From assembly GCA_001873285.1 (NCBI GenBank), contig MNYV01000076.1, positions 1-61,723 of the forward strand: a stretch of DNA of 61,723 bases, written 5' to 3'. Origin of the DNA: Nitrospirae bacterium CG2_30_53_67 (GTDB lineage: Bacteria > CG2-30-53-67). Position 1 is the first letter of the stretch. Every line of letters begins with the position of its first letter. Shown in pieces: positions 3,361 through 51,117 of the stretch. A program made the translations under genes and the position numbers. The notes below the pieces were generated by a model. That model was not told where the DNA came from, did not search any database, and saw only the letters and a list, made by a program, of their open reading frames with translations.

Positions 3361-3610
3361 TGAAAAATTTTATTGTCTTCAAAGAGAGGGATCCATAAAT
3401 TCGTGTCTTCTGATTCATACTGTAAATGCCTTCGCTTCGTATCAAAAGAGCGGATGATGACACTGTATCCTGGAACCGTTTCGACAATATCACCACAAAT
3501 ATAAAAATAATTTCATTTTAATCACATATTGTTATAAGTTTTACTTAATGTTATACATTATATAATCTAAAAACCAAACCCCATAAAGATGAAAACCTGA
3601 TATAAAGAGG

Positions 3611-3639
3611 TTGTCTTCCGGAGGCAAGACCGCTATAAT
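3611..3639 (+). promoter_or_regulatory. Candidate sigma-70 promoter for the zinc-ribbon gene/rlmN
   Basis: TTGTCT (3611-3616), 17-nt spacer, TATAAT (3634-3639), about 40 nt upstream of the 3681 ATG in an AT-rich spacer. Confidence 0.35.
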
Positions 3640-3680
3640 ATTCCTGCAAATAAAATAAAACGGATGACAAGGAATCAGCC

Positions 3681-3992
3681 ATGGGAAACGAAAAAAGAAT
3701 CAAGATCATCTGCCCCGAATGTCAGAGTGAGATCATCGTGGATTCACTCTCCTTTAAAATTCTTTATCACGAACCCAAAAATGACGATGAAGGCTCCCCA
3801 AAGAAAAAATCCATTCAGGAGCTTTTAAAGGAGATGGCGGAACAGCGGGAAAAAACCGCCGCCCGTTTTGAGGAAGAAAAAGAGGCCTTGAAACACCGGA
3901 GCGAATACCTTGAAAATAAATTTGAAGAGATCAAGAAACATGTGGATACCAACGATAAAACACCGCCTCCCCACCCTTTTGATTACGATTGA
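3681..3992 (+). CDS. Hypothetical small protein, N-terminal zinc-ribbon-like CPEC motif plus charged coiled-coil tail
   Basis: 103-aa ORF with an AAGGAA RBS. Starts with IICPECQSEIIV, followed by a Lys/Glu-rich helix. No family recognised. Confidence 0.55.
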   Translation: MGNEKRIKIICPECQSEIIVDSLSFKILYHEPKNDDEGSPKKKSIQELLKEMAEQREKTAARFEEEKEALKHRSEYLENKFEEIKKHVDTNDKTPPPHPFDYD

Positions 3993-5097: not shown

Positions 5098-5137
5098 AAA
5101 AAAAAGACCTCCCGTATGATAGATCCATACGGGAGGT
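5098..5137. terminator. Terminator between convergent rlmN and the DsbA-like gene
   Basis: Perfect 13-bp stem GACCTCCCGTATG/CATACGGGAGGTC (5105-5117/5125-5137) with a 7-nt loop. There are seven T after the stem on the minus strand and TTT on the plus strand. Confidence 0.7.
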
Positions 5138-5185
5138 CTTTGCAAGACTTGATCCTGCTTACCTTGCCGGAACGAACATGCCTGT

Positions 5186-6046
5186 TTATGACCTCTTCTT
5201 TTTCAACTCCTCGTCAATCATTGCCTTGAAACCCTCCAGGGAACGATTGGTCAGAATTCGTCCGTTGATGAAGATGGTCGGCGTCCCTCTGACCCCGGCC
5301 CGGCCGGCATCGGATACATCTTTATCGATGGCGTTTTTATGTTTTGGATCTTTAAGACTCTTTTGGAAGGAGTCCATATTCAAACCGAGTTCCCCTGCCA
5401 TGTCGAGGAGCTTCTGATCCGACAGGGCGCTATAATTATTAAAGATCTTTTCTTCATACTCCCAATATTTTCCTTGCTCATTCGCGGCCAAGGCAGCGAC
5501 AGCCGCCTGCCGGGAGAATGCATGCGTGGGGATGGGATAGATCTTGCTCACCAGCTTGACTTGTTTGGGATATTGCCCCAGCACCTGCCGGAGTAGCGGC
5601 AAAAGCCGCGCACAGTAGGGTCACTGGAAGTCTTCGAAGACGGCGATCACCACCGGCGCATCGGCCGGACCTTTAAAGGGAGACCCTTTGACATCGATCG
5701 GCTGGATGAAACTGACATTGATGACGGAAAGGGTCTTGGCCTTTTCATTGGTTACAAAGAGCTGGTCACCCCGTGGAGACACGGCGATTCGGCCGATGTC
5801 CTTGTCCACGGGGATCCGGCCCTCTATCTTTTTCGTCGCCTGGGATTGAACCAGCACTTCTCCGGATGTCAGGATGAAAACCCATTGGCCGTCCGGCGTG
5901 GAGGCAATGTCGATCGGGTTTTGATCCAGATTCAACGTGGATATTTTGCTCCATTCCACTTCCGCCTGAACGGAAAGGGGCAGAAAGCAAACCAAGACAA
6001 AAAACAGCATGGAAAGTAGAACTAAACCCCTTTTTCTTTTTCCCAT
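5186..6046 (-). CDS. Secreted DsbA/thioredoxin-fold thiol:disulfide oxidoreductase with in-frame TGA (candidate selenocysteine, U-P-Y-C)
   Basis: Track ORFs 5621..6046 and 5186..5602 are in the same frame. Read-through of TGA (5621-5623) gives APVVIAVFEDFQ-U-PYCARLLPLLRQVL..GKYWEYEEKIF..GVRGTPTIFINGR, the DsbA (Thioredoxin_4) pattern with the first Cys of CPYC replaced by TGA. The N-terminus has a signal peptide (LSMLFFVLVCFLPLSVQA). Confidence 0.8.
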
Positions 6047-6139
6047 AGTCCGCCTCCCGTGTAAGAAATTTTTTATAACCTATCTTAGTACAGTCATTTG
6101 AGTCAAGGAAATAATTTCTGCAACACCGCACACATCATC

Positions 6140-6727
6140 TTATCGGACCCTCTCGAAGTATCCGCCGAAGGCGCAGGGGCGGCAAAGGATTTTGCCGTGG
6201 ACCTGGACATCCCGCATGTCCTGAACCCAGTCGCCGCATTGATCACAGCGCACGCGTCTGACCGGACGGCCCGGCCTGTCCTGAACGGGAATATGGACCC
6301 GCACTTCTCGTATTTCAAAAAGTTCATCCTCGGGCATGACCTTATACGCCTCCCTCTGCTGGTCGTATTTCTCCTGGATACCGGGCGCGTATTTCCGCGC
6401 AAGCTCCCGTGATGATTCCCTGGCGCGGACCCTGACCGCCCTTCCGGTCTCCAGGTTGACGAAGGTGGCGGCCATGATCCCGTAATCCATGATCTTCACT
6501 GTCCGTTTCCCCACGCGGCATCCGGTAACCGACATAATGGCATCCGAGGCGCATCGGTCCATTTCCACGTAGACGATGATCTTCTTACGTTCCGCTTTGG
6601 ATTTCGGATCCTCGATCCCGATCTCACGGCAGCCGGTGACGGCCATCCTGGTCCCGATGACCTGTCCAGGGCACTCCTCGCCGTGAAAAGCCACCGATTC
6701 CTTCAAACATTCTTCCAGGGTTTTCAT
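6140..6727 (-). CDS. FmdE/FwdE-family protein with C-terminal zinc ribbon
   Basis: FHGEECPGQVIGTRMA matches the FmdE signature, and CDQCGDW..CRPC forms the ribbon. Start placed at ATG 6727 (AAGGAGAA RBS) rather than the track start 6778, which overlaps the upstream gene. Confidence 0.8.
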   Translation of the reverse strand: MKTLEECLKESVAFHGEECPGQVIGTRMAVTGCREIGIEDPKSKAERKKIIVYVEMDRCASDAIMSVTGCRVGKRTVKIMDYGIMAATFVNLETGRAVRVRARESSRELARKYAPGIQEKYDQQREAYKVMPEDELFEIREVRVHIPVQDRPGRPVRRVRCDQCGDWVQDMRDVQVHGKILCRPCAFGGYFERVR

Positions 6728-6767
6728 TCCGATCCATTCTCCTTGATCCCTTTTCGTGTTCACGATC

Positions 6768-7793
6768 CTATTGACCAAAAGGACAGACTGGAAAGCGGCA
6801 GGTCTCGCAGTTCAGACAGAGCCCGCCGTGGCCCAGGGCTGCAAGGGCCTCCCGTCCGATCCGTTCTCCGGCCAAAACCCGGGGGAGTATCAGGTCAAAG
6901 AGGGTGATATCGTGGAACATCCCGCACGCCGGCACACCGATCACAGGAATATCGCCCATATATGCGACCATGAGCATGGCCCCTGGAAGGACCGAAGAGC
7001 CATAAGTGATCTCCTCTGCGCCGGCATCAGCCACAGCAAGACGCGTCACATCGTCCGGATCAACGGACATCCCTCCTGTGGTCACGATGAGATCCGCCCC
7101 TTTTCCTATCAGATCCCGTATATGCCCGGCGATGACTTTCCTTTCATCCGGGGCGTAACGAACATCTACGATACTGGATCCGATCTCCTCCACCTTTTTT
7201 TGTATCACGGGTCTGAACCGGTCCTTGATCCTCCCGTGGTAGACCTCGTTTCCCGTGATCACCACTCCAACGCCGGCTTTCCGAAGCGGGAGGAGATGGA
7301 GGACACCCCCTGCTTCTTTGCAGACGGCAACGGCCTTTTCGATAATCTTCTTATGAATCACCAGCGGAATGGCCCGCGTCCCGGCCAGGATCTCTCCTTT
7401 CTTGACATACGTGTTGGTATGACGCGTGGCGCACATCACCTCGCCTATAAGATTGAATCGATAGAGAGCCTGAACATTGACCTTAAGCAGACCCTCATAC
7501 GCGGCCGTAAGCTCCAGTTTCCCCTCTTTGGGTTCTTTGGAAACCATAATACCCCGGCCGGCCAGCGCCGAGGCCAGCATCACCGCCGCATCATTTTCAT
7601 GGAGGTCCTCACCGCCGATCTCCAGGACATAAAGATGCTCTTTCCCCAGGTTTTTTAGATGTTCGATATCCGATTCGGTAATGATGTGCCCTTTTTTGAA
7701 GGCCCTTCCCTTGAACTGACCCGGGATGATTTCCGTAATGTCATGGGCCAGCACGGTTCCAACGGCATCGTGTACCGGCAATGTCTTCACCAT
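6768..7793 (-). CDS. Molybdopterin-binding (MoCF-biosynthesis/MoeA-like domain) protein
   Basis: 341 aa. N-terminus LPVHDAVGTVLAHDI is like MoeA domain I. The central part, VVITGNEVYHGRIKD..ADLIVTTGGMSVDPDD, is a MoCF_BD fold. The tail is Cys-rich (CLNCETCRFPVCP). Confidence 0.7.
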   Translation of the reverse strand: MVKTLPVHDAVGTVLAHDITEIIPGQFKGRAFKKGHIITESDIEHLKNLGKEHLYVLEIGGEDLHENDAAVMLASALAGRGIMVSKEPKEGKLELTAAYEGLLKVNVQALYRFNLIGEVMCATRHTNTYVKKGEILAGTRAIPLVIHKKIIEKAVAVCKEAGGVLHLLPLRKAGVGVVITGNEVYHGRIKDRFRPVIQKKVEEIGSSIVDVRYAPDERKVIAGHIRDLIGKGADLIVTTGGMSVDPDDVTRLAVADAGAEEITYGSSVLPGAMLMVAYMGDIPVIGVPACGMFHDITLFDLILPRVLAGERIGREALAALGHGGLCLNCETCRFPVCPFGQ

Positions 7794-7905
7794 TTCACCC
7801 TCCTGCTTGATTCATGGGTTCCCGATCCGTGTTGTGCATGTTTTACATAATGTTTTATCAAGAAACCCTTTAAAATTCAAGGTAAATAATCCCTCCGCCA
7901 TTCTC

Positions 7906-9066
7906 CTAAAACAAACCCTTCTTCTGCCTGGAACCCAAACATTGAGGGCAGGTTTCTCCGAGCAGCCCCAGAAAAGGCTCTCCGCAAATCCGGCAGCTCT
8001 TAGCAGATACACACATGAGCTCTCTCTCTTTTCCCTGGAGCAGTTCCTGAAGAACCACTTCCTCTTTAAACGAAACGGCCTTTGGAAGGCAGGCCTCCCC
8101 GCAAATCCGGCATCCGGTGCATTTTGAGGCATTGAAAAAAATGCGTATTTTTTTCCCCTCTTCATCCGGCTCTCTCCGGATGGCCCCGGTAGGACAGAGG
8201 GTCTCACAGACATTACAGCCGATGCAAGCCCCGGAAATCTCAAGGTCGACAACCGGGAAAACCTTAAAAGAGAGCTTCTCTTTTAGGGGTCCTCCCAGCA
8301 AAGGGAGCAATTCAAAGAGAAAGGACCGCATGGGATTCTCCCGGTGAGACCACCGGTTGATACCGGGGTCCTCCCCGGAATCAGGAATCAAATCCCTGGC
8401 GGCATCCAGGGTTCGCTTACGGAAGAAACTGAAGAGTTCCCTGCGTCCCAATCCTTCTCCGGAAGGTCTACTTTTATCCGAATGATCTTCCTTTAAAAGA
8501 TCAAAATCCTCCACTTCTTTGATCCGTTCCCCGGAAATCCCAAAACAAGAAAGCAGTTTACGTGTCCTCACGAGAAGCTGTTCATAGTGTTTCATGGATC
8601 CGAAAAAGGGACAGGTTTCACACCCGGTTCTTTTGATTAAAACCTCTTTCGCTCCCCAGGCAAAGGGGGCGATCAGATAGGCTTCCGACAGCCCGGCAAG
8701 ACAGGGAAGGACCATGACCTCCGCACGATTTTTTCTCTCGTGCATGATACAGGTCCATCGCGCAATGGAATCCGATTCCAGTTCTTTCTTGAGCCGTTCA
8801 CGCCGTTCCATCTCCTTGCGGCCGCTCAACGTGAATACCCCGTTGGGACAAGACGGGATGCATATCTCGCACCCGGAACAGCTCTCTCCGAGGACTACGG
8901 ATTGACCCAGTATATTCACCGCATCGCAAGGACACGCATTGAGGCATATTTTACAGCCTGAACGTGGATAACGGATCCTCGAACAAAGATGGGATCGAAT
9001 CCTGATGTCCGATTCCCTGGCCAACTGTCCCAGCATGCGGTTCAAAATCCCGCTCTGAAATACCAT
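7906..9066 (-). CDS. Multi-cluster 4Fe-4S ferredoxin-domain protein
   Basis: 386 aa with several CxxCxxCxxxCP motifs: CKICLNACPC, CSGCEICIPSCP, CIGCNVCETLCP, CTGCRICGEAC. Confidence 0.75.
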   Translation of the reverse strand: MVFQSGILNRMLGQLARESDIRIRSHLCSRIRYPRSGCKICLNACPCDAVNILGQSVVLGESCSGCEICIPSCPNGVFTLSGRKEMERRERLKKELESDSIARWTCIMHERKNRAEVMVLPCLAGLSEAYLIAPFAWGAKEVLIKRTGCETCPFFGSMKHYEQLLVRTRKLLSCFGISGERIKEVEDFDLLKEDHSDKSRPSGEGLGRRELFSFFRKRTLDAARDLIPDSGEDPGINRWSHRENPMRSFLFELLPLLGGPLKEKLSFKVFPVVDLEISGACIGCNVCETLCPTGAIRREPDEEGKKIRIFFNASKCTGCRICGEACLPKAVSFKEEVVLQELLQGKERELMCVSAKSCRICGEPFLGLLGETCPQCLGSRQKKGLF

Positions 9067-9153: not shown

Positions 9154-11244
9154 TTATTTTTCTTCTTGATTCATCGAACGTTTTTCAGGCTTCCTGAAGA
9201 GACTGAGGCGGTTTTTCCCTGAAGCCTTGGCGCGATATAGGGCTTTATCCGCAGCGTCTATCAAGCTCTTGATGTTCCTGGCATCTTCCGGATAGGTAGC
9301 CAGACCCGCACTGATGGTAAAATTTCCGATCGGCTGGTCTTCTTCGTAAGGAAAATAAAATTTTTCCACCTCTTTCAGGAGTCTTTCACCAATGACCACG
9401 GCCTCGCGTTTGGATGTCTGCGGGAGGACAACCGTAAACTCTTCACCTCCGTATCTTGCTACAAAATCAATATTACGGACCGTCTCCCGTATCACGGCTG
9501 CAACACTACGAAGCGCCTCATCGCCGGCCAGATGTCCATGATGATCATTGTACCATTTAAAATCATCCACATCGATCATCATCAGAGAGAGGGGATAACT
9601 ATGCCGCTGTGCCCTGGCGATCTCCTCCGTGGTCCTCTCAAAGAAATAGCGCCTGTTCAGCAGGTTGGTCAGATGATCCGTAATCAAGACCTGCTCCATC
9701 TCCTTGGACCTCTGATAAAGCTGAGTACGCTCCAGGGCTATGGCCACCTGGGAGGCGAATATCCTGACGATTTTGAGATCATCCTCATTGAAAATTTCCC
9801 CGGTGATCTTATCCGAGATGTTCAAAACACCGATGGGGCGGTCATTCATGATCAAGGGGATACTGATGAAGGATTTGGTCTTGTATTTCATTTTCTTTTT
9901 CCGCTTTACCCTCAAATCCTTTTCAATATCCTCCACCAGGAGCGGTTCCCCTTTCTCGACGACCCTGCCTGCTATGCCCTCTCCCACTTTGATGTGCAGG
10001 TTGCGGATGACGTTCTCCGGCATCCCTTTGCAGGCCTTGATGGTCAGTTCCCTGGATGCCTCATCCAGTATCATCAGCGATGCCTGTTCCGCCTTGACGA
10101 TTTCCGTGGACTTGTTCAGAATCAGATGGAAGAGCTCGTTTAATTCGCGTGTCTCACCCACCTCCGTCGTCAGCATCCCTAGGTTCGTGATATCCAGAAT
10201 CCGGTTTTTAAGCCTGATTCTGAGCTCCACATTCTGGATGGCCATGGCCGCTTGATCACAAAAGGCATGGATCATCCGGACGTTATTCTCAGAAAGTCCG
10301 GTATTCACGATGCAGATCAATCCTCTGACCTTCTGGCCCAGATAGATGGGGAAGAGATAAACCGAATGGACCTTTTCGTTAAATACCGATTTCTCGATCT
10401 GAATTCTTTCGCTGGTATACACGGGTTTGTGTTCCTTGAGGATTTGACTGACAAGGCCGTTTTGGATGCCGGGGTTGAAGGATTGGAGTCCCAATTCTTC
10501 TGCCCCGCAATAAGACTGGGTGATGAAATGCTTTCCCGATGGATCGAGAAGAACCAGAGAACACCCCGTCAGATCAAAGAGAATAGAGAGTGAATTGAGG
10601 ATCAGCCCGAAGAGTTCATGACTGTCCATGACCAGGTTGAGATCGTTTCCCAGGTGAAAGAGGCTGAAAAGTTTTGAGAAGTTCCGGCCGAAGTTCTGCG
10701 TCTGTCTGTAGGAGTCCGTCAGGGTCTGCCCCACAGAGGTTAAATAAGTTACGGCATTCTGAACCTCCCTAAACTTCCCTATCCTGAGTTCTCCGATCGC
10801 CTTGAAGAGTTGATCATGATTCAACCCGCATTCCGCCGCCAAGGCCATATACTTTGAAGAAACCGGCGCATCTGTGCATATCTTCCCACCGAAGATGGCG
10901 CCGATCACCTGTTGATCGGCCTTTAAAGGAATCGTGAAACAGAGAAGTCCGGCATAACAGATGAAGGTTACGGGCTCCCCGTCCCGAAGTGAACGGGCAA
11001 TCCGCAGCCCGCATTGCGATCTGCACCTTTGAAGCCCCTTTCCCGTGCCCCGGATCAGCCGGCACAGGTAACGTTCCTCATATGACCTGCCAAGTACCGC
11101 CCCATCGGACCCCACACATTTGATCGTCAAACCTGACAAGCGGGCGAAACCAGCCATAGACCTCTGCCATGAATCCGAAATCAGCAGTTTCCTGAAGTCT
11201 TTTTGTTCAGAAGGTTTCATGATATAACCATCCTGTCTTGACAA
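9154..11244 (-). CDS. Diguanylate cyclase with PocR-like sensor and GAF domains (PocR-GAF-GAF-GGDEF)
   Basis: 696 aa with a Cys-containing PocR-like N-terminus, two GAF-like segments and a C-terminal GGDEF domain. The active site is RYGGEEF and an RxxD I-site (RNID) lies 5 residues upstream. Confidence 0.85.
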   Translation of the reverse strand: MSRQDGYIMKPSEQKDFRKLLISDSWQRSMAGFARLSGLTIKCVGSDGAVLGRSYEERYLCRLIRGTGKGLQRCRSQCGLRIARSLRDGEPVTFICYAGLLCFTIPLKADQQVIGAIFGGKICTDAPVSSKYMALAAECGLNHDQLFKAIGELRIGKFREVQNAVTYLTSVGQTLTDSYRQTQNFGRNFSKLFSLFHLGNDLNLVMDSHELFGLILNSLSILFDLTGCSLVLLDPSGKHFITQSYCGAEELGLQSFNPGIQNGLVSQILKEHKPVYTSERIQIEKSVFNEKVHSVYLFPIYLGQKVRGLICIVNTGLSENNVRMIHAFCDQAAMAIQNVELRIRLKNRILDITNLGMLTTEVGETRELNELFHLILNKSTEIVKAEQASLMILDEASRELTIKACKGMPENVIRNLHIKVGEGIAGRVVEKGEPLLVEDIEKDLRVKRKKKMKYKTKSFISIPLIMNDRPIGVLNISDKITGEIFNEDDLKIVRIFASQVAIALERTQLYQRSKEMEQVLITDHLTNLLNRRYFFERTTEEIARAQRHSYPLSLMMIDVDDFKWYNDHHGHLAGDEALRSVAAVIRETVRNIDFVARYGGEEFTVVLPQTSKREAVVIGERLLKEVEKFYFPYEEDQPIGNFTISAGLATYPEDARNIKSLIDAADKALYRAKASGKNRLSLFRKPEKRSMNQEEK

Positions 11245-15791: not shown

Positions 15792-17141
15792 CTATGGATT
15801 CTGGACGGTTTTTTTAACGATCTTTCTGTTCCCGACTCTGTCAACCGCCACGATGGTGATCTCCGTGTCCGAAGAAATTTGGGAAAGAACATACTTAAAA
15901 CGTCCGGTTTTGTCGGGTAAGACAGGAACATCATTGATCGTGACTGCAGCATCCGGTTCCGTCTGGCCGCTGATCTGGGCATTCACTTTGCCGGAAACCT
16001 TGAGCAGGAGGAGATCATCCAGAACAATATCCGGAGGCGTCTGGTCAATGGTGATCTTGAATACGCTGTAATCACTGAAATCCCCTTCATTCCCCTCGGA
16101 TGTAATCGAACTCACACGCCAATAATAGATCCCGCTTTTTAATCCCTGGACCACCACTCCCTTCTCAGACAAGCCCGTACGGACAATGACGAGGTCCGTA
16201 AAATAGGGATCCAGCGCCACCTGTATCCGGTAGGTGACTCCCGACAGGGAATCATCCCACTTCAACACCATCTTCATCTCACTCAGATTCTTGAAAAAGA
16301 ATTCGGCCAGATTTTCAGGACTCCCCAATTTGGGAGGCGCCGGAAGATCCTTAATCTCACGGATCTTCTTCTCCTTGGAAATATCAACCGACTGGTTTCG
16401 CACAACCTCCATGGACTCCCCTCCAACCTTTACGTCTACTGCGCCGCTGAAAACCTTCAATTTGCTCTCCTGTTCCTTAGAGACCTGAACGGCCACCTTG
16501 GCCTCGGATATCTTCGCCAGAGCCGTGGGGGTCACGATCACAAACTCCGAGCCTTCGATCTTGGGGCGGCGTACAACCGCTTCCACGTCGCTTTGCAGAA
16601 GATTGATGGATGACTTTCTGATCTTGGTCAGACGGTTCTCCTTCATATCATGGATCACGACCAGTGAGTCCGGCTTGATGGTCAGCTTGTTTCCTTCATC
16701 GAAGAGAACCTCGGCATAACCGCCTGAATAGGTCCGGATAGTGTCCCCTTCTCTCAGGATCTGGTCCTTTTCCGCCTTCTGGAACTTCAACTCCTTCTGG
16801 CTCTTGACGTTCACGTCCCCTTTGACATAGACGAGCCTGGCAAAGTAGACATCCATGACATTGCTGTCGGGTTCATCCTGCTTTTTCTCAGGACTTGCCT
16901 GGAGCCCGAAAAAGGATCCTATCTTGACAAGAAAAGGAAACCGTCCTCCCTCCTTTTTCAGAAAGATGGGAAAGGATACGGCAAGGACCAGGATCAAAAT
17001 GAAGATGACAAAGACCCTCACGAGGACGCGGGGAATCCGAATCATCTTCCAGTCGAGGAGTGGTTTCCTCTCTTTTCTCATCTCTTTTCTTGTCATGACT
17101 CTATCTCTTTTCGTCCATGTCCGCGTCATTCCGCCGGTCAA
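15792..17141 (-). CDS. Membrane-anchored FecR-domain protein with FN3/Ig-like C-terminal domains
   Basis: One TM segment (VFVIFILILVLAVSFPIF), a FecR-like core (GDTIRTYSGGYAEVLFDEGNKLTIKPDS), then beta-rich domains (YYWRVSS). 4-nt overlap with the upstream HD-GYP gene. Confidence 0.65.
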   Translation of the reverse strand: MTGGMTRTWTKRDRVMTRKEMRKERKPLLDWKMIRIPRVLVRVFVIFILILVLAVSFPIFLKKEGGRFPFLVKIGSFFGLQASPEKKQDEPDSNVMDVYFARLVYVKGDVNVKSQKELKFQKAEKDQILREGDTIRTYSGGYAEVLFDEGNKLTIKPDSLVVIHDMKENRLTKIRKSSINLLQSDVEAVVRRPKIEGSEFVIVTPTALAKISEAKVAVQVSKEQESKLKVFSGAVDVKVGGESMEVVRNQSVDISKEKKIREIKDLPAPPKLGSPENLAEFFFKNLSEMKMVLKWDDSLSGVTYRIQVALDPYFTDLVIVRTGLSEKGVVVQGLKSGIYYWRVSSITSEGNEGDFSDYSVFKITIDQTPPDIVLDDLLLLKVSGKVNAQISGQTEPDAAVTINDVPVLPDKTGRFKYVLSQISSDTEITIVAVDRVGNRKIVKKTVQNP

Positions 17142-18871
17142 GCGATGTCGGGACGGACCGATGCAGGATGATGATATGGCTTTTCCTCGAGCATTTTTCT
17201 CTTGATGCCTTTGATCCGGTTGTTACGGAATGCCTGGATGAAGGCCTCGCAGACCTTGGGATCGAACCTCGTACCGGCCCAGGATTTGATCAGTTCCATC
17301 ACCTCTTCCTCGTCGGTCGCCACCTGGTAAGGTCTGTCGGATGTCATGGCATCAAAAGTGTCCGCCACGGCGATAATCCGGGCCGGCAACGGGATCTCCT
17401 CACCGCGGATCCCATCGGGATAACCCTCCCCATCGTATCGTTCGTGATGGTGGCGCATGGATGGAATGATCTTTTGGAGCTGTTTGATGGGCGCCATGAT
17501 ATTGGCCCCCTTGCCGGGATGCTGTTTGATCAGATTATACTCGGCCTTGCTCAGGCCGCTCGGCTTTCTCAGAATGCTGTCGTCGATCCCGATCTTGCCG
17601 ATATCATGGAGCAGGGCGGCAATATGGAGGATTTCTCTCGTCTTTAAATCCAGCTTCATTTCATCCGCTATGACCAGACTGTATTCCGTGACCCTCTCCG
17701 AGTGGCCGCGCGTGTAAGGATCCCTTTCGTCGATGGCTGCGGCAAGCGATGAAATCGCGCTCATGAACAGCCGCCTCATGTTCTTGTCATACAAGTCCAG
17801 CTGCTTAACCATGTAATTGAAGGTTTCGGCCAGCTGCCCGATCTCATTTTTTGCGCGTACGGTAATCTTTTCCTTGAAGTTTCCCTGGGCAATGACTAAT
17901 GCGCTCTTTGTAAAATTGATGATGGGGACACTGATCTTCCTGGCAAAAAAGATACCGATCCCGCAGACCAGGATGCCGGTGATGCCCCCCCAGACCAGGA
18001 TCTGCCGCTTCATCTCGGCCACCATGGTATAGGCATCCACACGGGGTTCCTGCACGACCACGCCCCATCCTTCAAAATCCAACGGCGCATAAGCTCCAAG
18101 CATTTCTTTCCCATTTTTGTCCGCAAAGGGGATGGCCCCTCCGGTTTTTCCCAAGGAAAGATACTTCCCGACGATCTCCACGTCCTTCATGTTTTCCTGC
18201 CGGAGAACCCCGGGACGATCCTTGCCGGCGATCAGACGGCCCAGACGGTCTATCAGATAGGCTTCACCGGACTGCCGGAAGGAGACCTTGTCCACGATCT
18301 CCCATATCTTATCCATGGACATGTCGGCAAGGAGGATCCCGGTCATGTTGTTTTCCTGAAAGACGGGAAGACCGATGGTGACGATGGCGGTTTTCTTCTC
18401 AGAAATACTCAGGGGATCGGCCACGAAGACATTCCCCTGCATGGATTGATCAAAGACCTGGTCCCGTATTTTTTTGCGTTCTTCCAAATAAAGCCCGCTC
18501 ATATCCGGCCGTACGACCTCGGCAATGGAGTTTCTCTGTGTGTCCAGCAGGGTGATGCTGATCAGATCCTTATATTCATCGAGGAAGAAGAACAGGAGCT
18601 GATATTTCTGGATATCCGAAAAGGATTGGGTCAGGGGGAGGAGCCGGGCGATGATCTCCAGTTTCTCGATGGTGTGCCTGAGGTGGCCGGAAACCTCGTC
18701 GGCGGTCTGCCTGGCCCGCTGGGCATGGGAATCCAAGAGGTCGTTTTCCAGGTATTCCTCATTGATCTTGACAAGATTTCTGTCGGATATGATCAGAGGC
18801 GCCAGGGAGATCATCAGCATCACGATGATTAACTGGAGCATCAATCGTCTTTTAGGCCTTATTTTTTGCAC
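17138..18871 (-). CDS. HD-GYP c-di-GMP phosphodiesterase with periplasmic Cache-like sensor and HAMP
   Basis: Two TM segments flank a periplasmic domain, followed by HAMP (IGQLAETFNYMV). HD-GYP motifs: HSERV, LLHDIGKIG, HHERYDGEGYPDG, DTFDAMTSDRPY. Confidence 0.85.
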   Translation of the reverse strand: MQKIRPKRRLMLQLIIVMLMISLAPLIISDRNLVKINEEYLENDLLDSHAQRARQTADEVSGHLRHTIEKLEIIARLLPLTQSFSDIQKYQLLFFFLDEYKDLISITLLDTQRNSIAEVVRPDMSGLYLEERKKIRDQVFDQSMQGNVFVADPLSISEKKTAIVTIGLPVFQENNMTGILLADMSMDKIWEIVDKVSFRQSGEAYLIDRLGRLIAGKDRPGVLRQENMKDVEIVGKYLSLGKTGGAIPFADKNGKEMLGAYAPLDFEGWGVVVQEPRVDAYTMVAEMKRQILVWGGITGILVCGIGIFFARKISVPIINFTKSALVIAQGNFKEKITVRAKNEIGQLAETFNYMVKQLDLYDKNMRRLFMSAISSLAAAIDERDPYTRGHSERVTEYSLVIADEMKLDLKTREILHIAALLHDIGKIGIDDSILRKPSGLSKAEYNLIKQHPGKGANIMAPIKQLQKIIPSMRHHHERYDGEGYPDGIRGEEIPLPARIIAVADTFDAMTSDRPYQVATDEEEVMELIKSWAGTRFDPKVCEAFIQAFRNNRIKGIKRKMLEEKPYHHPASVRPDIA

Positions 18872-20365
18872 CTATCCCTCCGGAATTTCCATGGACAGGG
18901 AATTCTTCTGCCTTCCGATCATAAAGACCGCGTTCCTTGTCCCTTCCTTGACCCGATACATGGACTGATCCGCCAGTTGGATCAGTTCGTTCTTATCCTT
19001 CACGTGGTTTGGGTAGGAGGCGATGCCGAAACTGGCCGTGAGGTGAAACGCCTCGCCTGTATCCGAATAAAACGTATACTCCTCCATGGTCTTCCTGAGG
19101 CGTTCAGAAGTGCCGAAGGCTGCTTCAGGCCCCGTCTCCGGCAGGACGGCGATGAACTCATCACCGCCATACCTGCAGATGACGTCCATGGGCCGGAGAT
19201 GATTCTTCAATATGGTCCCGATCTCCACCAGGAGCTGGCTCCCGACCAGATGTCCGAAACGATCGTTGACGCGCTTGAAATAATCAAGATCCAGGAAGAT
19301 CAGTGAAACCTGGGTATGGTACCGGTTTGCCCTTGAAATTTCGATATCAAGAGACTGATGCAGATATCTGAAGTTATAAAGCTGCGTCAATCCGTCGGTA
19401 ATGGCCAGCTCCGTCGCCTTCTTATAGAGGAGAGAGTTTTCAATCGCGATGGAAGCCTGGTCGACAAGGGTCAAAACAAGATCCAGGTCTTTCCGGTCAA
19501 AAGGCTTTCCATCAATCTTGTTGATGACCTCCAGAACGCCCAGGATCTTCCCCTTGCTGCGCAGCGGCACGCAGAGAATGGAACGCGTCTTAAAATCCAG
19601 GGAATCATCAATCTTATGGCAGAACCGTTTGTCCGTGGCGACGTCCTCCACAATGATGGGCTCACCATGAAGGGCCACCCATCCGGCGATCCCCTCCCCT
19701 ACCTTAAGCCGGAACCTCTTGATATCGTGTTTTTTCTCTCCCTCGGCCAATTCAAAGTAGAGTTCGTTCTTTTCCTCATCCAGCAGCAGCACGGAGCCGG
19801 CCTCGGCCTTGACCAGTTCATTGGTCTTTTCCATGATGATGTCGAGAATGCTTCCTGTGTCCAGTGTGGAAGTCAGGGCCTTGCCGACCTTGATGAAGTA
19901 GGAGAGTTCCCTGGTGGTTTGATCCCGTTCAGAGGTGGTGCGGATCAGATCTTCAAACTGCGCCTTGCGGTCCTCGGCCTTTCCAAGAGCAAAAATAAGC
20001 CTCTTGGCATGGATGGATAAAATGAGATAGTCGTCTATCTGTGTGATCTTCTGCTGAAAAATCGTTTCGAGATCGTCTTCGAACACCGCCAGGATCACCT
20101 GGGTCGCGGGATTCCCTTTCTTCAGGTCTTTGATCCGGTCCGTATCCCATGACGATTTCCCCACAATCAGAATGGAACCTGGTTCAGGTTGAGGGCCTTG
20201 GTTGCGGCATACCAGCGGATCGAATCTGGACCCCTGCATGAAACCCAGCAAGGCATCCTCTTCCTGACGGTTAAGACCGTGCAGATAGACCCGAACGTTT
20301 TTATTCATGGTACCGTCTTTCCTAAAGAATGATCCCGATCCCGGCTGACCTGTCTGCCGTCGCAC
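18872..20365 (-). CDS. Diguanylate cyclase (receiver-like N-terminus, GAF, GGDEF)
   Basis: GAF segment (GIAGWVALHGEPIIVEDV). GGDEF domain with RYGGDEF and an RxxD I-site (RPMD). Confidence 0.85.
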   Translation of the reverse strand: MRRQTGQPGSGSFFRKDGTMNKNVRVYLHGLNRQEEDALLGFMQGSRFDPLVCRNQGPQPEPGSILIVGKSSWDTDRIKDLKKGNPATQVILAVFEDDLETIFQQKITQIDDYLILSIHAKRLIFALGKAEDRKAQFEDLIRTTSERDQTTRELSYFIKVGKALTSTLDTGSILDIIMEKTNELVKAEAGSVLLLDEEKNELYFELAEGEKKHDIKRFRLKVGEGIAGWVALHGEPIIVEDVATDKRFCHKIDDSLDFKTRSILCVPLRSKGKILGVLEVINKIDGKPFDRKDLDLVLTLVDQASIAIENSLLYKKATELAITDGLTQLYNFRYLHQSLDIEISRANRYHTQVSLIFLDLDYFKRVNDRFGHLVGSQLLVEIGTILKNHLRPMDVICRYGGDEFIAVLPETGPEAAFGTSERLRKTMEEYTFYSDTGEAFHLTASFGIASYPNHVKDKNELIQLADQSMYRVKEGTRNAVFMIGRQKNSLSMEIPEG

Positions 20366-46531: not shown

Positions 46532-47557
46532 TCAGAGATTCATATCCTGATAAGCCATGAGCCGGCTGAAATCAAAGAGCGCGCCCATGGCCAGATTCTC
46601 CGTATGAATGCCTGACTCCTCGACCGCTGCCAGTGGATTGAGGCCGCCGGCCACAATGATGCCGGCCCGTCCTTCCACCACCGGGATATCGAGCAGCGGC
46701 TGGTTGGGCTTTCCTGCCATCAGGACGGCGCCCAATCCGATACCTTCGAGCTGCCTGACAAGCCTTCGGATCTCAGGGAGGGCCACGGCCGGAATCTCCC
46801 TGAAGCTCGCCCCGATCAGGCCGCGTCCCGTGCGGACGGCATCAAGAACGCTGGTCATATGCCCTTTGATAAAGATCTCCAAAGGATCCAGCGAGGAACC
46901 GTCATAATGAATAATCTGTGTAAATCTGTGCGGCTCGCCTTGATAGATATCGAGGAGCCCTCCGAACTTTGAAACCACGGGAATGCCCGCATGGATGAAG
47001 ATGCCGTTCAAGGTCACACTGCAGATCGTGCCGATAGCGGTTTTCCCTTCAGGAACGAAAAAATCACCCATCGGCGTCCCAGGGCCGGAAATGGTGATGT
47101 ATTGCCCCATCCCCAGTCTCTTTTCAAAAACCGGGGTCATGATTTTTAACGCATCTTTTATGAACCGGGTATCGATCAGGGAAATATTCAACAAGACCGG
47201 ACCGGATTTCTTTTTGATAGAAAAATTCATCCTGTAAGAAAGAGCGTCTATTTTAGAGGAAATCAACCCCACCTTATCAACCACCAGAGCATTTTGCAAC
47301 TCCTCTTCACCCTTAGCCGTGATCTTCCGTCCCAGTCTTTCGGATCTCTTGCATGTCAGGCCCAACTGATCGGTCAGCGCCAGGTAATGACGTACCGTCC
47401 TGTGGCTGAGATTGATCCCGAAAGACTGAAGGGTCTCCGCAAGATGGGTGCTCCCCAGCGGTCGTCTTGCGTTATTAAGGGCCTTAAGGATGGCCACGAT
47501 TTTTCGTTCTTTATTGATATCCATCTCGCGTAAAACCCTGAATGGTCTGTCATCCAT
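46532..47557 (-). CDS. nrpR: NrpR-type regulator (winged HTH plus one DUF128/NrpR domain)
   Basis: The N-terminal wHTH (ILKALNNARRPLGSTHLAETL..SHRTVRHYL) and the remainder resemble the archaeal nitrogen repressor NrpR family as I recall it. Lies divergent to the glutamate synthase genes. Confidence 0.7.
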   Translation of the reverse strand: MDDRPFRVLREMDINKERKIVAILKALNNARRPLGSTHLAETLQSFGINLSHRTVRHYLALTDQLGLTCKRSERLGRKITAKGEEELQNALVVDKVGLISSKIDALSYRMNFSIKKKSGPVLLNISLIDTRFIKDALKIMTPVFEKRLGMGQYITISGPGTPMGDFFVPEGKTAIGTICSVTLNGIFIHAGIPVVSKFGGLLDIYQGEPHRFTQIIHYDGSSLDPLEIFIKGHMTSVLDAVRTGRGLIGASFREIPAVALPEIRRLVRQLEGIGLGAVLMAGKPNQPLLDIPVVEGRAGIIVAGGLNPLAAVEESGIHTENLAMGALFDFSRLMAYQDMNL

Positions 47558-48364: not shown

Positions 48365-49480
48365 ATGTGCCGTTTAAGCGCAATGACATGCCGAGATTAT
48401 TTCTCCCCCATGGAGAATATCCTGGCCCTGGAAACCATGAAGGAAGGCCACGACGGGTCCGGCCTGGGACTGTTGCTCAAAGACCTGGGCGGGGCTTTCA
48501 AGGACATGAAGGGATACCCTATTCTCTCCGGAATCTGTTCCAATCATGGGCTGGAGATCTTGGACCAGTATATGAAGGCACGGGGGTTCAATGAACTCAT
48601 GGCCTGGGAGCCTGAAATCCGCAGGGTTCCCGGTTCAGAGATCCAAAGACGGGACCACTATTTTGCCAAGGTCTATGACTATCCTCTGGATGTGCGGGAG
48701 GCCCCCATGCCGGGAAAAGAGGATCTGCTCATGAAGACCCGCATCGCCCTGCGGAGCAGAGGAGAAAGAGATGAATCGATTTTTGTCTTCTCTTTCTATC
48801 CGGATATCATCACGATCAAAGAAGTTGGAGACCCTTTGCATCTGGGAGAGTTTTTCAGTCTGGACCGAGACGAGCTTAAAGCCAAAATCATCTTTGCGCA
48901 GGGCCGGCAGAATACGAATTATGCGATCTACCTCTATGCCTGCCATCCCTTTTTCATCCAGGGATACGGCACCATGACCAACGGGGAGAACACGGCCTTT
49001 GTCCCCATCCGTGAATTCCTGACAAGCCGGGGCTTCCCGGGTTATATGGGTTACAACAGCGACAGTGAGGTTTTAACCCACATCCTTCACTACTGCCACA
49101 GACAGTTGAAATATCCGCTGATCTATTACAAGGATGTGATCACACCGCTCAAAAATGCTGAGATCAACGGCCGCCCGGACGGCAAGGCCCTCCGTCTCAT
49201 CAGGAATTCGCTTCGCCCGCTCTGCATCGACGGGCCGAACTGTGTGATCGGATTCACTCCTGACGGCACGGTCTTCATGACCCAGGATTCCAAGAAACTC
49301 AGGCCGGGCGTGGTCGGAGGCGCACCGGGAAAGTTTGCGCTCATGTCTGAAGAATGCGGACTGGACAAGGCCATCCCGGACCGGGACAAGAGCGTGGATT
49401 TCGCCCCCATGAAATATGACATGGCCATGGTCACGCCCGATGCCAAGGAGTTAAAAAAATGGAACCAGCTGAACGTTTAG
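48365..49480 (+). CDS. Glutamate synthase, glutamine amidotransferase (class II, Ntn) subunit, archaeal-type split GltB domain 1
   Basis: MCRLSAMT.. has Cys right after the initiator Met, as class-II GATases require. ATG at 48365 with a GGCGGAGAG RBS; the track start at 48284 is over-extended. Confidence 0.85.
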   Translation: MCRLSAMTCRDYFSPMENILALETMKEGHDGSGLGLLLKDLGGAFKDMKGYPILSGICSNHGLEILDQYMKARGFNELMAWEPEIRRVPGSEIQRRDHYFAKVYDYPLDVREAPMPGKEDLLMKTRIALRSRGERDESIFVFSFYPDIITIKEVGDPLHLGEFFSLDRDELKAKIIFAQGRQNTNYAIYLYACHPFFIQGYGTMTNGENTAFVPIREFLTSRGFPGYMGYNSDSEVLTHILHYCHRQLKYPLIYYKDVITPLKNAEINGRPDGKALRLIRNSLRPLCIDGPNCVIGFTPDGTVFMTQDSKKLRPGVVGGAPGKFALMSEECGLDKAIPDRDKSVDFAPMKYDMAMVTPDAKELKKWNQLNV

Positions 49481-51117
49481 ATCAAAATCACCAACTCTCT
49501 CTCAAAGAGTTTCCCTATATCATCCGGTGGCGGGAAGACCGCTGCACCCGCTGCGGCCGCTGTACGGCCGTCTGCCCCGTCAATGCCATTGAACCTTCGG
49601 TCTTTTCCCAGCGGCTGGTGCAGTCAGAGGGAAGCACCCCCTTCCCCGCCGTGGTTCGAAGGATCACGCACGGAATCCGGCAGGTCACGGATATGGAAAG
49701 GCACTGCACCGGATGCAGCGCCTGCGCCCTGGTCTGTCCGAACGTCGCGATCGAACCGGAATACAACCCGCATCACAAGTTCCTTTTTTACAAGAACAAG
49801 GGGGGCGTTCCCTACAAGAGGGGCGGCCGGAGAAACGATCCAAGCCCATCCACCGTGGACCAATTGAAATTCACCCGGATCTCCATGCTCACGGACCCGG
49901 CGCTGGATGCCGGACGCCACGAATTCCACATCCGAACCCTCCTCGGAAGGAACCTTCCACCGGAAAAGCTCCCTCTGGAGGTCGAAGACGGTCTTCTTGC
50001 GGTCAAGAAGGATTCCGGATTCATCCCGCCGGTCAGGGAGATCTATCCGATTCGTATTGCAAGCATGTCCGTAGGCGCCCTCTCCCCGCACATGTGGGAA
50101 GGGCTGGCCATGGGGGTTGCTTACCTCAATGAAGTGGAAGGGCTTCCTGTGGTCATGTGCACCGGCGAAGGAGGCATACCGCCCAGGCTCCTGACCTCTC
50201 GTTTTGTGAAATATTTTATCATTCAGATCGCATCGGGTTATTTCGGCTGGGACGAGATCATCCATGCCATTCCGAAGATGGTGGAAGATCCCGCGGCTAT
50301 CGAGATCAAATACGGCCAGGGCGCAAAACCCGGAGACGGCGGCCTGCTCATGGCCTACAAGGTTCTCAAACTCATCGCAAAGATCCGGGGCGTGCCTGAA
50401 TACGTGGATCTCGCGTCTCCGCCCACCCACCAGACCCAGTATTCCATCGAGGAGGCCGTGGCCAAGATGATCCAATCCATGTCCATGGCCTGGGGGTTCC
50501 GTGTCCCGGTCTATCCCAAGATCTCCGGGACCAAGACGGCCAGGGCGGTCCTCAACAATCTGGCAAGAAATCCCTATGCGGCGGCCCTCTGCATCGACGG
50601 CGAAGACGGGGGGACCGGCGCGGCCTACAATATCTCCATGGACAAGATGGGTCACCCGATCGCATCCAACATCCGGGACTGCTACCTCGACCTGGTTAAA
50701 CAGGGGAAACAGAACGAACTCCCCCTGATCGCCGCAGGCGGCATGGGAAAGACCGGCAGCCTCGCGGCCAATGCCGCGGCCATGATCATGCTGGGAGCCT
50801 CGGCCGTGGACATCGGGAAATATATCATGCAGGCCGCGGCCGGCTGCCTTGGGAATGAATACAACCGCTGCAACCTCTGCAATACGGGACGGTGTCCCAG
50901 GGGGATCACCACGCAGGATCCCAAACTCTACAGGCGGCTCGACCCGGATAAGGTTGCGGAACGGGTGGTGGAGGTCTTCAAGTCCGCGGACGTGGAACTC
51001 AAGAAGATCTTTGCACCCATGGGGCGCAGCACTCAGCTCCCCATCGGCATGTCAGACGGCCTGGGTGTTGCGGACAAGGAGATCGCCGAACGGCTGAATA
51101 TCAGCTACGTCTGTTGA
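49459..51117 (+). CDS. Glutamate synthase FMN/Fe-S catalytic subunit (GltB domain 2) with N-terminal 2x[4Fe-4S] ferredoxin domain
   Basis: CTRCGRCTAVCP and CTGCSACALVCP, followed by MSVGALS..TGEGG..KYGQGAKPGDGG..DGEDGGTGAA..AAGGM. Confidence 0.9.
   Translation: MEPAERLDQNHQLSLKEFPYIIRWREDRCTRCGRCTAVCPVNAIEPSVFSQRLVQSEGSTPFPAVVRRITHGIRQVTDMERHCTGCSACALVCPNVAIEPEYNPHHKFLFYKNKGGVPYKRGGRRNDPSPSTVDQLKFTRISMLTDPALDAGRHEFHIRTLLGRNLPPEKLPLEVEDGLLAVKKDSGFIPPVREIYPIRIASMSVGALSPHMWEGLAMGVAYLNEVEGLPVVMCTGEGGIPPRLLTSRFVKYFIIQIASGYFGWDEIIHAIPKMVEDPAAIEIKYGQGAKPGDGGLLMAYKVLKLIAKIRGVPEYVDLASPPTHQTQYSIEEAVAKMIQSMSMAWGFRVPVYPKISGTKTARAVLNNLARNPYAAALCIDGEDGGTGAAYNISMDKMGHPIASNIRDCYLDLVKQGKQNELPLIAAGGMGKTGSLAANAAAMIMLGASAVDIGKYIMQAAAGCLGNEYNRCNLCNTGRCPRGITTQDPKLYRRLDPDKVAERVVEVFKSADVELKKIFAPMGRSTQLPIGMSDGLGVADKEIAERLNISYVC

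Follow-up and report, generated by a model that had tools for sequence, protein, structure and literature searches.

What is to be made of a DsbA-like gene whose frame is interrupted once, by a TGA codon standing where the nucleophilic cysteine is expected: is it a broken gene, a pair of genes, or a gene in which the codon specifies selenocysteine (Sec)? The question is posed by positions 6046..5186, minus strand, of contig MNYV01000076.1 (assembly GCA_001873285.1), a stretch of 61,723 nucleotides (nt) from Nitrospirae bacterium CG2_30_53_67, the whole of which is referred to here as the window. Comparative sequence evidence indicates that these positions very probably constitute one genuine Sec-decoded gene, the product of which would be a secreted thiol-disulfide oxidoreductase of the DsbA fold with the active site U-P-Y-C. 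Two results carry this interpretation: homologues possess either TGA or a cysteine codon in the same alignment column, and a conserved, covarying hairpin downstream of the codon is specific to the TGA forms. Both support the candidate selenoprotein that had been proposed in an earlier inspection of the DNA (hereafter the sequence-only reading).

One reading frame across the TGA codon

The complete read-through coding sequence (5186..6046, minus strand) consists of 286 codons, extending from an ATG at 6046..6044 to a TAA at 5188..5186, with the UGA as codon 142 (5623..5621). The minus-strand open reading frames (ORFs) 5621..6046 and 5186..5602 lie in one common frame, of which this TGA is the sole interruption. 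The product reads ...APVVIAVFEDFQ*PYCARLLPLLRQVLGQYPKQVKLV...GTPTIFINGR..., and from end to end MGKRKRG...VVIAVFEDFQ-[TGA]-PYCARLLPLLRQVLGQYPK...GTPTIFINGR...KKKRS. When Cys is placed at the TGA, residues 121-279 match Pfam Thioredoxin_4 (PF13462; 7e-27, 95.1 bits against a cutoff of 23.2, profile positions 4-165 of 165), and the same sequence matches DSBA (PF01323; 2e-20, 73.9 bits against a cutoff of 25.6). The Thioredoxin_4 match spans the TGA, which replaces the first, nucleophilic Cys of CPYC to give FEDFQ-U-PYC; the active-site tetrad U142-P-Y-C145 occupies 5612..5623 (minus strand). The shared frame and the placement of the TGA at the nucleophilic position of a DsbA/Thioredoxin_4 protein had both been claimed in the sequence-only reading and are confirmed.

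The signals flanking the gene are those of a single unit. A Shine-Dalgarno-like GGGAGG, read from the sequence, lies 6 nt 5′ of the ATG (6053..6058, minus strand), and an intrinsic terminator (5103..5141, minus strand), comprising a 17-bp stem and then a T-run, lies 45 nt past the stop codon and ends the transcription unit beyond the full-length gene. No terminator-like sequence occurs in the part of the gene 3′ of the UGA. A consensus scan upstream of the gene revealed no credible sigma-70 promoter; the sequence TTGACT (6106..6101) lacks a well-spaced -10 element.

That the locus represents two separate genes, or that UGA is here a sense codon (Trp or Gly), has a negligible probability. The point in favor of an altered code is that some pipelines translated TGA-containing orthologues with W, as in code 4. 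Yet 23 of the 45 Pfam-supported ORFs in the window end in TGA, which is used there more often than any other stop, so that UGA normally signals termination in this genome and is not a sense codon. The alternative code was accordingly rejected, the W being a gene-caller artefact for a TGA in a code-11 context. Two genes were rejected as well: the second half starts partway through a Pfam domain and is preceded by neither an ATG nor a ribosome-binding site comparable to the Shine-Dalgarno-like sequence of the first.

Automated annotation reports fragments, as had been foreseen. At NCBI the halves are two separate “hypothetical protein” entries (OIP64463/OIP64464 and copies), with one partial copy designated “thioredoxin, partial,” and the gene callers used for the JGI and ENA assemblies likewise split the gene in two. 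The source is a population of metagenome-assembled genomes (MAGs) from Crystal Geyser, the NCBI names of which include CG2_30_53_67 and CG_4_9_14_3_um_filter_53_35; GCA_002774505.1 (contig PEYF01000048.1) is a further assembly. The identical TGA recurs in seven contigs of this organism and its relatives that were assembled independently (NCBI, JGI, and ENA) from different samples, and it is thus not a read error. Within the gene these contigs differ by only three single-nucleotide polymorphisms (SNPs), all synonymous, one of which lies downstream of the TGA.

The Sec/Cys column among homologues

A homologue search over 5.8 billion proteins returned 2399 matches. Most of the best-matching homologues are proteins of approximately 284 amino acid residues possessing a signal peptide, a beta domain of about 80 residues, and a DsbA domain; at JGI they are labeled “predicted DsbA family dithiol-disulfide isomerase” or “protein-disulfide isomerase.” Among the 120 best homologue clusters, 95 show a single CPYC and nine carry W in the column of the first Cys (P0006, P0011, P0013, P0016, P0017, P0021, P0023, P0030, and P0043; WPYC or WLYC). 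In P0011 (locus L001), the one checked in DNA, the W proved to be a TGA translated under code 4 by the source pipeline. Should the other eight be alike, selenoprotein genes on short contigs would be systematically mis-translated.

A check of homologues for Cys or TGA at this column had been proposed in the sequence-only reading, and its outcome is favorable. Scanning one genome per GTDB species, a set that did not include the source genome, yielded 80 loci, the best of which is 50% identical. Orthologous loci with the N-terminal domain number 27 (L001-L027), representing 26 GTDB species genomes and one metagenome contig. The codon is TGA in 14 of these (L001, L003, L004, L006, L011, L015, L017, L019, L020, L021, L022, L024, L025, and L026), TGC or TGT in 12, and TCA (Ser) in one (L002). 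TGA is also present in seven more distant DsbA-only genes from Acidobacteriota, Myxococcota, and unclassified MAGs, giving 21 TGA loci among those fetched. On alignment, such a concentration of TGA at one column is judged to be far beyond chance. One of the 14, L025, presents the motif U-K-Y-C (approximately 3400..3900); a duplicated QGKFWEFHDLLFENY segment shifts its frame and is probably a scaffolding artefact.

Sec and Cys forms intermingle in a neighbor-joining tree (for instance, the Sec form L015 is sister to the Cys forms L008 and L009), and the state has therefore changed several times. This distribution bears directly on the suggestion that the gene is an ordinary pseudogene, created by a TGC/TGT-to-TGA nonsense mutation in a DsbA-like gene of Cys type. 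TGA is indeed a single substitution from the Cys codons, and the pipelines do show two fragments. A chance nonsense mutation is hard to square, however, with TGA at the same column in 14 of 27 orthologues scattered in the tree and in seven distant relatives, with a TGA-specific hairpin that covaries, or with a gene that displays no further lesions and only synonymous SNPs. We consider this explanation scarcely credible, the comparative data effectively refuting it.

Hairpins downstream of the TGA codon

Two hairpins are found within 50 nt of the UGA in all 14 TGA orthologues analyzed. In the comparisons that follow, 14 TGA orthologues (L025 being left out) are set against 12 Cys orthologues, and positions are counted with the U of UGA as +1. 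The second hairpin of the window gene, H2 (5576..5593, minus strand; +31..+48), is the candidate selenocysteine insertion sequence (SECIS). It has a 7-bp stem (CUCCGGC/GCUGGGG) and the apical loop AGGU (5586..5583), 34 nt after the UGA, with a free energy of -10.8 kcal/mol. The first, H1 (5596..5609, minus strand; +15..+28), has the sequence GCGGC-UUUU-GCCGC and a region energy of -10.5 kcal/mol. Both hairpins stand at the offsets given in the sequence-only reading, its loop CAGGUG at +34..+39 being right if counted from the base after the UGA.

In the Sec forms, H2 possesses a stem of 6-7 bp, the closing pair C37-G42, and the loop A-G-G/U-U, in which A38, G39, and U41 are invariant. Its six inner pairs are 100% paired across the 14 Sec orthologues, and overall 93.9% of cells are paired versus 54.8% in the 12 Cys forms. 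Compensatory changes affect five of the seven pairs; pair 34:45, for example, is GC in eight sequences and CG in six. The covariation score was reached by none of 500 shuffles, slid registers fell to 24-51% pairing, and RNAalifold, run independently, returned the H2 helix as the only consensus structure. The energies of the H2 region do not overlap, being -7.1 to -11.8 kcal/mol in the 14 Sec forms and -0.4 to -4.1 in the 12 Cys forms (Mann-Whitney p = 1.7e-5). Because the H2 stem overlaps codons of the conserved peptide L-x-Q-V-L-x, synonymous codons were resampled; TGA forms then average z = -3.1 and non-TGA forms about -0.8, the window gene itself standing at -2.4. A SECIS-like structure is thus conserved and covarying among TGA orthologues and mostly missing from the Cys forms, which is the outcome that the sequence-only reading had called for.

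In the bacterial SECIS (bSECIS) model of Zhang & Gladyshev, as summarized in PMC13188914, the loop measures 3-9 nt and carries G within its first two positions (usually followed by G/U), the stem has 4-16 bp, 16-37 nt separate the UGA from the loop, and the minimum free energy is -7.5 kcal/mol or lower. H2 agrees with this model in every respect (loop of 4 nt, AGGU; stem of 7 bp; spacing of 34 nt; -10.8 kcal/mol). The loop of H1 contains no G and fails the loop rule. By this model, the suggestion that either hairpin might be a SECIS stands for the second and not for the first. Of all the TGA codons in the window, only the one in the DsbA-like gene is flanked on either side by long ORFs and accompanied by a bSECIS-like hairpin, and scans of the window for frames split by a single TGA and for TGA with a bSECIS-like hairpin revealed no other credible selenoprotein gene.

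H1 nevertheless has a signal of its own. On synonymous-codon resampling it gives z = -3.3 in the window gene, and the TGA forms average -2.5 against about -0.8 in non-TGA forms. All but one of the 14 TGA orthologues fold a hairpin at the H1 site with z <= -1.7, the exception being L017 (-0.8), and the mean energy is -8.3 kcal/mol in Sec forms versus -2.7 in Cys forms (p = 1.7e-4). Its register and sequence vary between subclades and no loop G is conserved; H1 was compared by energy and resampling, as the differences in register preclude column-wise covariation. We surmise that it is an accessory or spacer element and not the binding site for SelB.

The more distant TGA genes present a different structure. 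L039 (3085), L047 (3064), L051 (3751), L071 (3070), L078 (1403), and L082 (3076) share a strongly conserved hairpin, GAGGGUCG-GUC-CGACCCUC, which lies at about +14..+34, encodes R-V-G-P-T-L, and is described as being of the GGU-loop type; this hairpin was not seen in L070 (3076), where the TGA is present. A different hairpin in these Acidobacteriota and Myxococcota genes suggests that Sec was acquired there independently, the SECIS spacing being more canonical.

Several observations weigh against decoding of the codon as Sec. When set against dinucleotide shuffles, the 70-nt region of the window gene shows no significant excess of stability (z = -1.45), and the single sequence is unconvincing alone. 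Rfam, searched at E <= 10 over 5450..5700, returned no SECIS family, the matches being noise. At 34 nt, the spacing comes near the maximum of the known 16-37 nt range. Neither the 61.7-kb window nor the 17 kb upstream of it (about 80 kb in total) yielded selA, selB, selD, or tRNA-Sec, as searched with ARAGORN, which reported no tRNA in the window, and with Pfam scans of the 45 window ORFs and of the 17 kb upstream. Finally, the two closest non-TGA relatives, L086 (TGT) and L002 (TCA), retain H2, so that the presence of this hairpin is no strict marker of the Sec state.

These two relatives deserve separate consideration. L002 (10424..10426; GCA_936413585.1, contig CAKYLW010000018.1) is the closest NCBI homologue, at 64% identity; its TCA codon gives S-P-F-C, and it keeps both SECIS-type hairpins (H1, -9.1 kcal/mol; H2, -10.6 kcal/mol). 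The TCA is either a very recent Sec-to-Ser change that cripples the active site or an error in the MAG consensus. L086 (736..738; JGI 3300036760), the next closest homologue at 63% identity, carries TGT (Cys) and a perfect H2 (-12.1 kcal/mol; z = -5.0 versus synonymous resampling), with H1 lost; its hairpin looks like a relic SECIS after conversion of Sec to Cys. The H1 stem of the window gene is identical to that of the Sec form L022. This identity, together with the tree, makes it the simplest reading that L086 and L002 lost Sec recently and that their hairpins are relics.

The window gene could itself be of Sec type by descent and no longer decoded, in which case the Sec machinery would have been lost and the UGA would terminate translation, leaving a 141-residue fragment as a recent relic. 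The lack of sel genes in the 80 kb examined would agree with this, as would the close relatives, which swapped the codon and kept the hairpin as if the lineage were moving away from Sec. Set against it are two intact hairpins, well past the synonymous-codon expectation, and 144 undisrupted downstream codons in which the sole SNP is synonymous; furthermore, the same allele occurs in all seven assemblies from different samples. A published survey also reports selB and selC in “a groundwater lineage of Nitrospirae,” which is not equated with this genome. Loss of decoding appears very unlikely.

A further alternative is that a SECIS directs insertion of Cys at the UGA, instead of or beside Sec, by means of a tRNASec-like tRNACys(UCA) (selC*) and a second SelB (SelB*). 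Such recoding is described in some Desulfobacterales and suspected in Nitrospirae-like contigs. The interchangeability of Sec and Cys at this site would accommodate it, and selC*, the tRNA able to recode UGA to Cys, has been found in Thermodesulfovibrio and in Nitrospirae-like contigs. However, every selC*-containing isolate genome in the study reporting selC* also had the complete Sec apparatus, no selC*, selB*, or cysS* was seen within the available sequence, and UxxC DsbA-like proteins are established selenoprotein candidates. We accord Cys recoding a slight probability.

If the UGA is decoded as Sec, as we favor, translation would start at the ATG at 6046 and proceed to UGA142. There H2, with its AGGU loop 34 nt past the codon (hairpin 5593..5576), would recruit SelB with Sec-tRNASec, and Sec would be inserted in place of termination. 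The stretch from the UGA to H2 is occupied by H1 (5609..5596), the probable role of which is to set the distance between them or to stabilize H2. Translation would then run on for 144 codons to the UAA, and the transcript would end at the terminator (5141..5103).

Protein architecture, genomic setting, and known systems

Residues 1-28 (5963..6046, minus strand) are predicted to be a Sec-pathway signal peptide. The N-terminus, MGKRKRG-LVLLSMLFFVLVCFLPLSVQA|EV, displays n-, h-, and c-regions, a hydrophobic core, and the putative cleavage site VQA|EV; homologues share these regions, and the AlphaFold2 (AF2) model of a homologue shows an N-terminal helix at residues 3-20. The protein is probably exported, and the signal peptide would direct it to the periplasm.

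Next follows a beta domain (residues ~40-112; 5711..5929, minus strand) that resembles two blades of a YVTN-type beta-propeller. The sequence-only reading had predicted a beta-rich N-terminal domain, and this was borne out: the family profile, searched against the PDB, matches the YVTN propeller 1l0q (E 1.3e-17) and hydrazine synthase beta over residues ~30-107. The NCBIfam and Pfam propeller matches are weak, the TIGR02276 YVTN repeat scoring 17.1 bits against a cutoff of 27.85, and the homologue model contains seven strands between residues 46 and 110, or approximately two blades. The domain is YVTN-like, but it is not a complete propeller of 6-8 blades.

The catalytic domain (Thioredoxin_4/DSBA, residues 121-279; 5210..5686, minus strand) is defined by Pfam, by the PDB profile search, and by Foldseek of a homologue model. 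The PDB search with the family profile finds 3gyk, Corynebacterium DsbA and TsdA, Bacillus subtilis BdbD, and ScsC. The structure examined was the AF2 model of P0002, a Cys homologue of 63% identity (mean pLDDT confidence score 93.7), which stands in for the window protein. Its best Foldseek matches are BdbD (3eu3), 3gyk, Wolbachia alpha-DsbA2, and ScsC, with target template modeling (TM) scores of about 0.8. The model indicates a DsbA fold, that is, a thioredoxin core with an inserted helical domain, in which position 142 lies at the N-terminus of helix 143-158, the site of the nucleophilic Cys in DsbA. Thr255-Pro256 (5279..5284, minus strand) is assigned by alignment to the cis-Pro loop of the thioredoxin/DsbA fold (GTPT motif); G254, T255, and P256 are invariant in the 30-sequence family alignment.

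In the proposed mechanism, Sec142 and Cys145 would cycle between the selenolate/thiol and selenenylsulfide states, exchanging with cysteines of the substrate, for which Thr255-cisPro256 would form a groove. A fragment of two blades cannot close a propeller alone, and oligomerization is therefore plausible. Since DsbC, ScsC, and alpha-DsbA2 oligomerize through their N-terminal domains, the YVTN-like module may, by analogy, do likewise, which would point to a reductase or isomerase and not to an oxidase of the DsbA type.

The gene is flanked in the window by RlmN on one side and, on the other, by a set of genes directly upstream on the same strand (6140..9066, minus strand), encoding an FmdE-domain protein with a Cys-rich C-terminal tail, a MoeA-like MoCF_biosynth protein, and a 4Fe-4S protein of 386 amino acids. 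The set looks like one for a molybdenum/tungsten cofactor. A functional link with the DsbA-like gene is unlikely, because the DsbA-like orthologues do not share these neighbors. No DsbB, VKOR, DsbD, CcdA, or ScsB is conserved beside the gene or its orthologues; the orthologue neighborhoods show only housekeeping synteny in one subclade (by eye, trigger factor, ClpP, PhoH-like, and YbeY-like).

Elsewhere in the window, a c-di-GMP-I-GGC riboswitch (RF03167; 724..803, minus strand; 60 bits against a gathering threshold of 59) is the sole Rfam match at gathering thresholds. It lies just upstream of a gene that starts at about 639 (minus strand) and runs off the window start; in L089 this gene is seen as a 1033-residue fervidolysin-like Peptidase_S8. 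Enzymes of cyclic di-GMP (c-di-GMP) metabolism are abundant: PocR-GAF-GGDEF (9154..11244), GAF-GGDEF (18872..20365), and dCache-HAMP-HD_5 (17138..18871). An NrpR-family regulator (PF01995, 6.6e-78; 46532..47557, minus strand) lies near glutamate-synthase-like and Fe-S/flavin oxidoreductase genes (49459..51117 and 51661..53979, both plus strand). It is chiefly as an archaeal nitrogen repressor that the NrpR family is known.

The main gain from this analysis is a corrected annotation, and current understanding is unchanged. Many orthologues are mis-called in the same manner, in some cases with W in the active site, and no NCBIfam model covers the family, so that NCBI's Prokaryotic Genome Annotation Pipeline (PGAP) offers no rescue. 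The corrected gene would place a selenoenzyme in the periplasm of a subsurface bacterium of Nitrospirae type from Crystal Geyser. With 27 orthologues, about half of them of Sec type, the family has a SECIS simple enough to take apart, in which an accessory hairpin precedes a covarying 7-bp hairpin with the loop A-G-G/U-U, and it offers a natural series for two questions, namely the benefit of Sec in a DsbA-type active site and the decay of a SECIS after loss of Sec.

It is possible, if rather doubtful, that the gene typifies a distinct and undescribed subfamily of periplasmic selenoproteins. Such a subfamily would join a two-blade YVTN-like module to DsbA, employ Sec in about half of its species, use a bipartite SECIS (H1 as a spacer of variable register, H2 binding SelB at far spacing), have lost Sec repeatedly with relic hairpins in L086 and L002, and act as an oligomeric isomerase or reductase. 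Repeated loss with relic hairpins, if true, would be contrary to the published view, a 2026 review describing Sec-to-Cys reversion in bacteria as rare and mostly confined to FdhA and SelD.

DsbA-like selenoproteins with UxxC were first reported in 2005 from the Sargasso Sea on the basis of nine sequences (Zhang, Fomenko & Gladyshev, PMC1088965). The family was found in 2006 in Anaeromyxobacter, Desulfovibrio desulfuricans, and Desulfotomaculum reducens, and by 2016 it had been counted in 41 organisms among bacterial genomes; it is listed in PMC1794560, PMC5029168, and PMC13188914, the last being a 2026 review with the entry “DsbA-like protein form 1, PF01323, UxxC.” The window protein shares with form 1, which occurs in anaerobic delta-proteobacteria-like lineages, the DsbA fold, UxxC, a positive PF01323 match, widespread Cys homologues, and a G-loop stem-loop just past the UGA. 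It differs in matching Thioredoxin_4 (PF13462) best, and in its N-terminal YVTN-like domain, its two-hairpin SECIS, and a G-loop at 34 nt; form 1 was compared here by its description and not by its reference, NIP15863.1 (COG2761-type).

Among NCBIfam models, the best match to the catalytic domain is NF041057 (Rcas_1661 thioredoxin-like (seleno)lipoprotein; E 2e-20, profile positions 72-246 of 247), which likewise has Sec and Cys members. The window protein scores 73.4 bits against a cutoff of 190 and is not a member, and PGAP leaves the gene as fragments because of this shortfall. It also differs from NF041057 in possessing another N-terminal domain and a type-I-like signal peptide with no obvious lipobox.

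BdbD, ScsC (Caulobacter, Proteus, and Salmonella), and Wolbachia alpha-DsbA2 have in common with the window protein a thioredoxin core, a helical insertion, CxxC at helix 1, and the Thr-cisPro loop. The target TM scores of the P0002 model are approximately 0.76-0.80 for BdbD, 3gyk, and alpha-DsbA2 and 0.64-0.82 for the ScsC entries. In ScsC and alpha-DsbA2 an extra N-terminal module oligomerizes, and the proteins act as reductases or isomerases. These proteins differ from the window protein in possessing Cys rather than Sec, and in N-terminal modules that are helical and not propeller blades.

The consensus bSECIS is a single hairpin, whereas the window gene has H1 as a second, Sec-specific hairpin between the UGA and H2. 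The AGGU core of the H2 loop resembles the SECIS of Escherichia coli fdhF, the loop of which contains GGU. The UxxC DsbA-like selenoproteins are an established class, to which the window gene adds a mis-annotated member; its subfamily is set apart by the YVTN-like module, by a SECIS of two hairpins at long spacing, and by a Sec frequency of about 50%.

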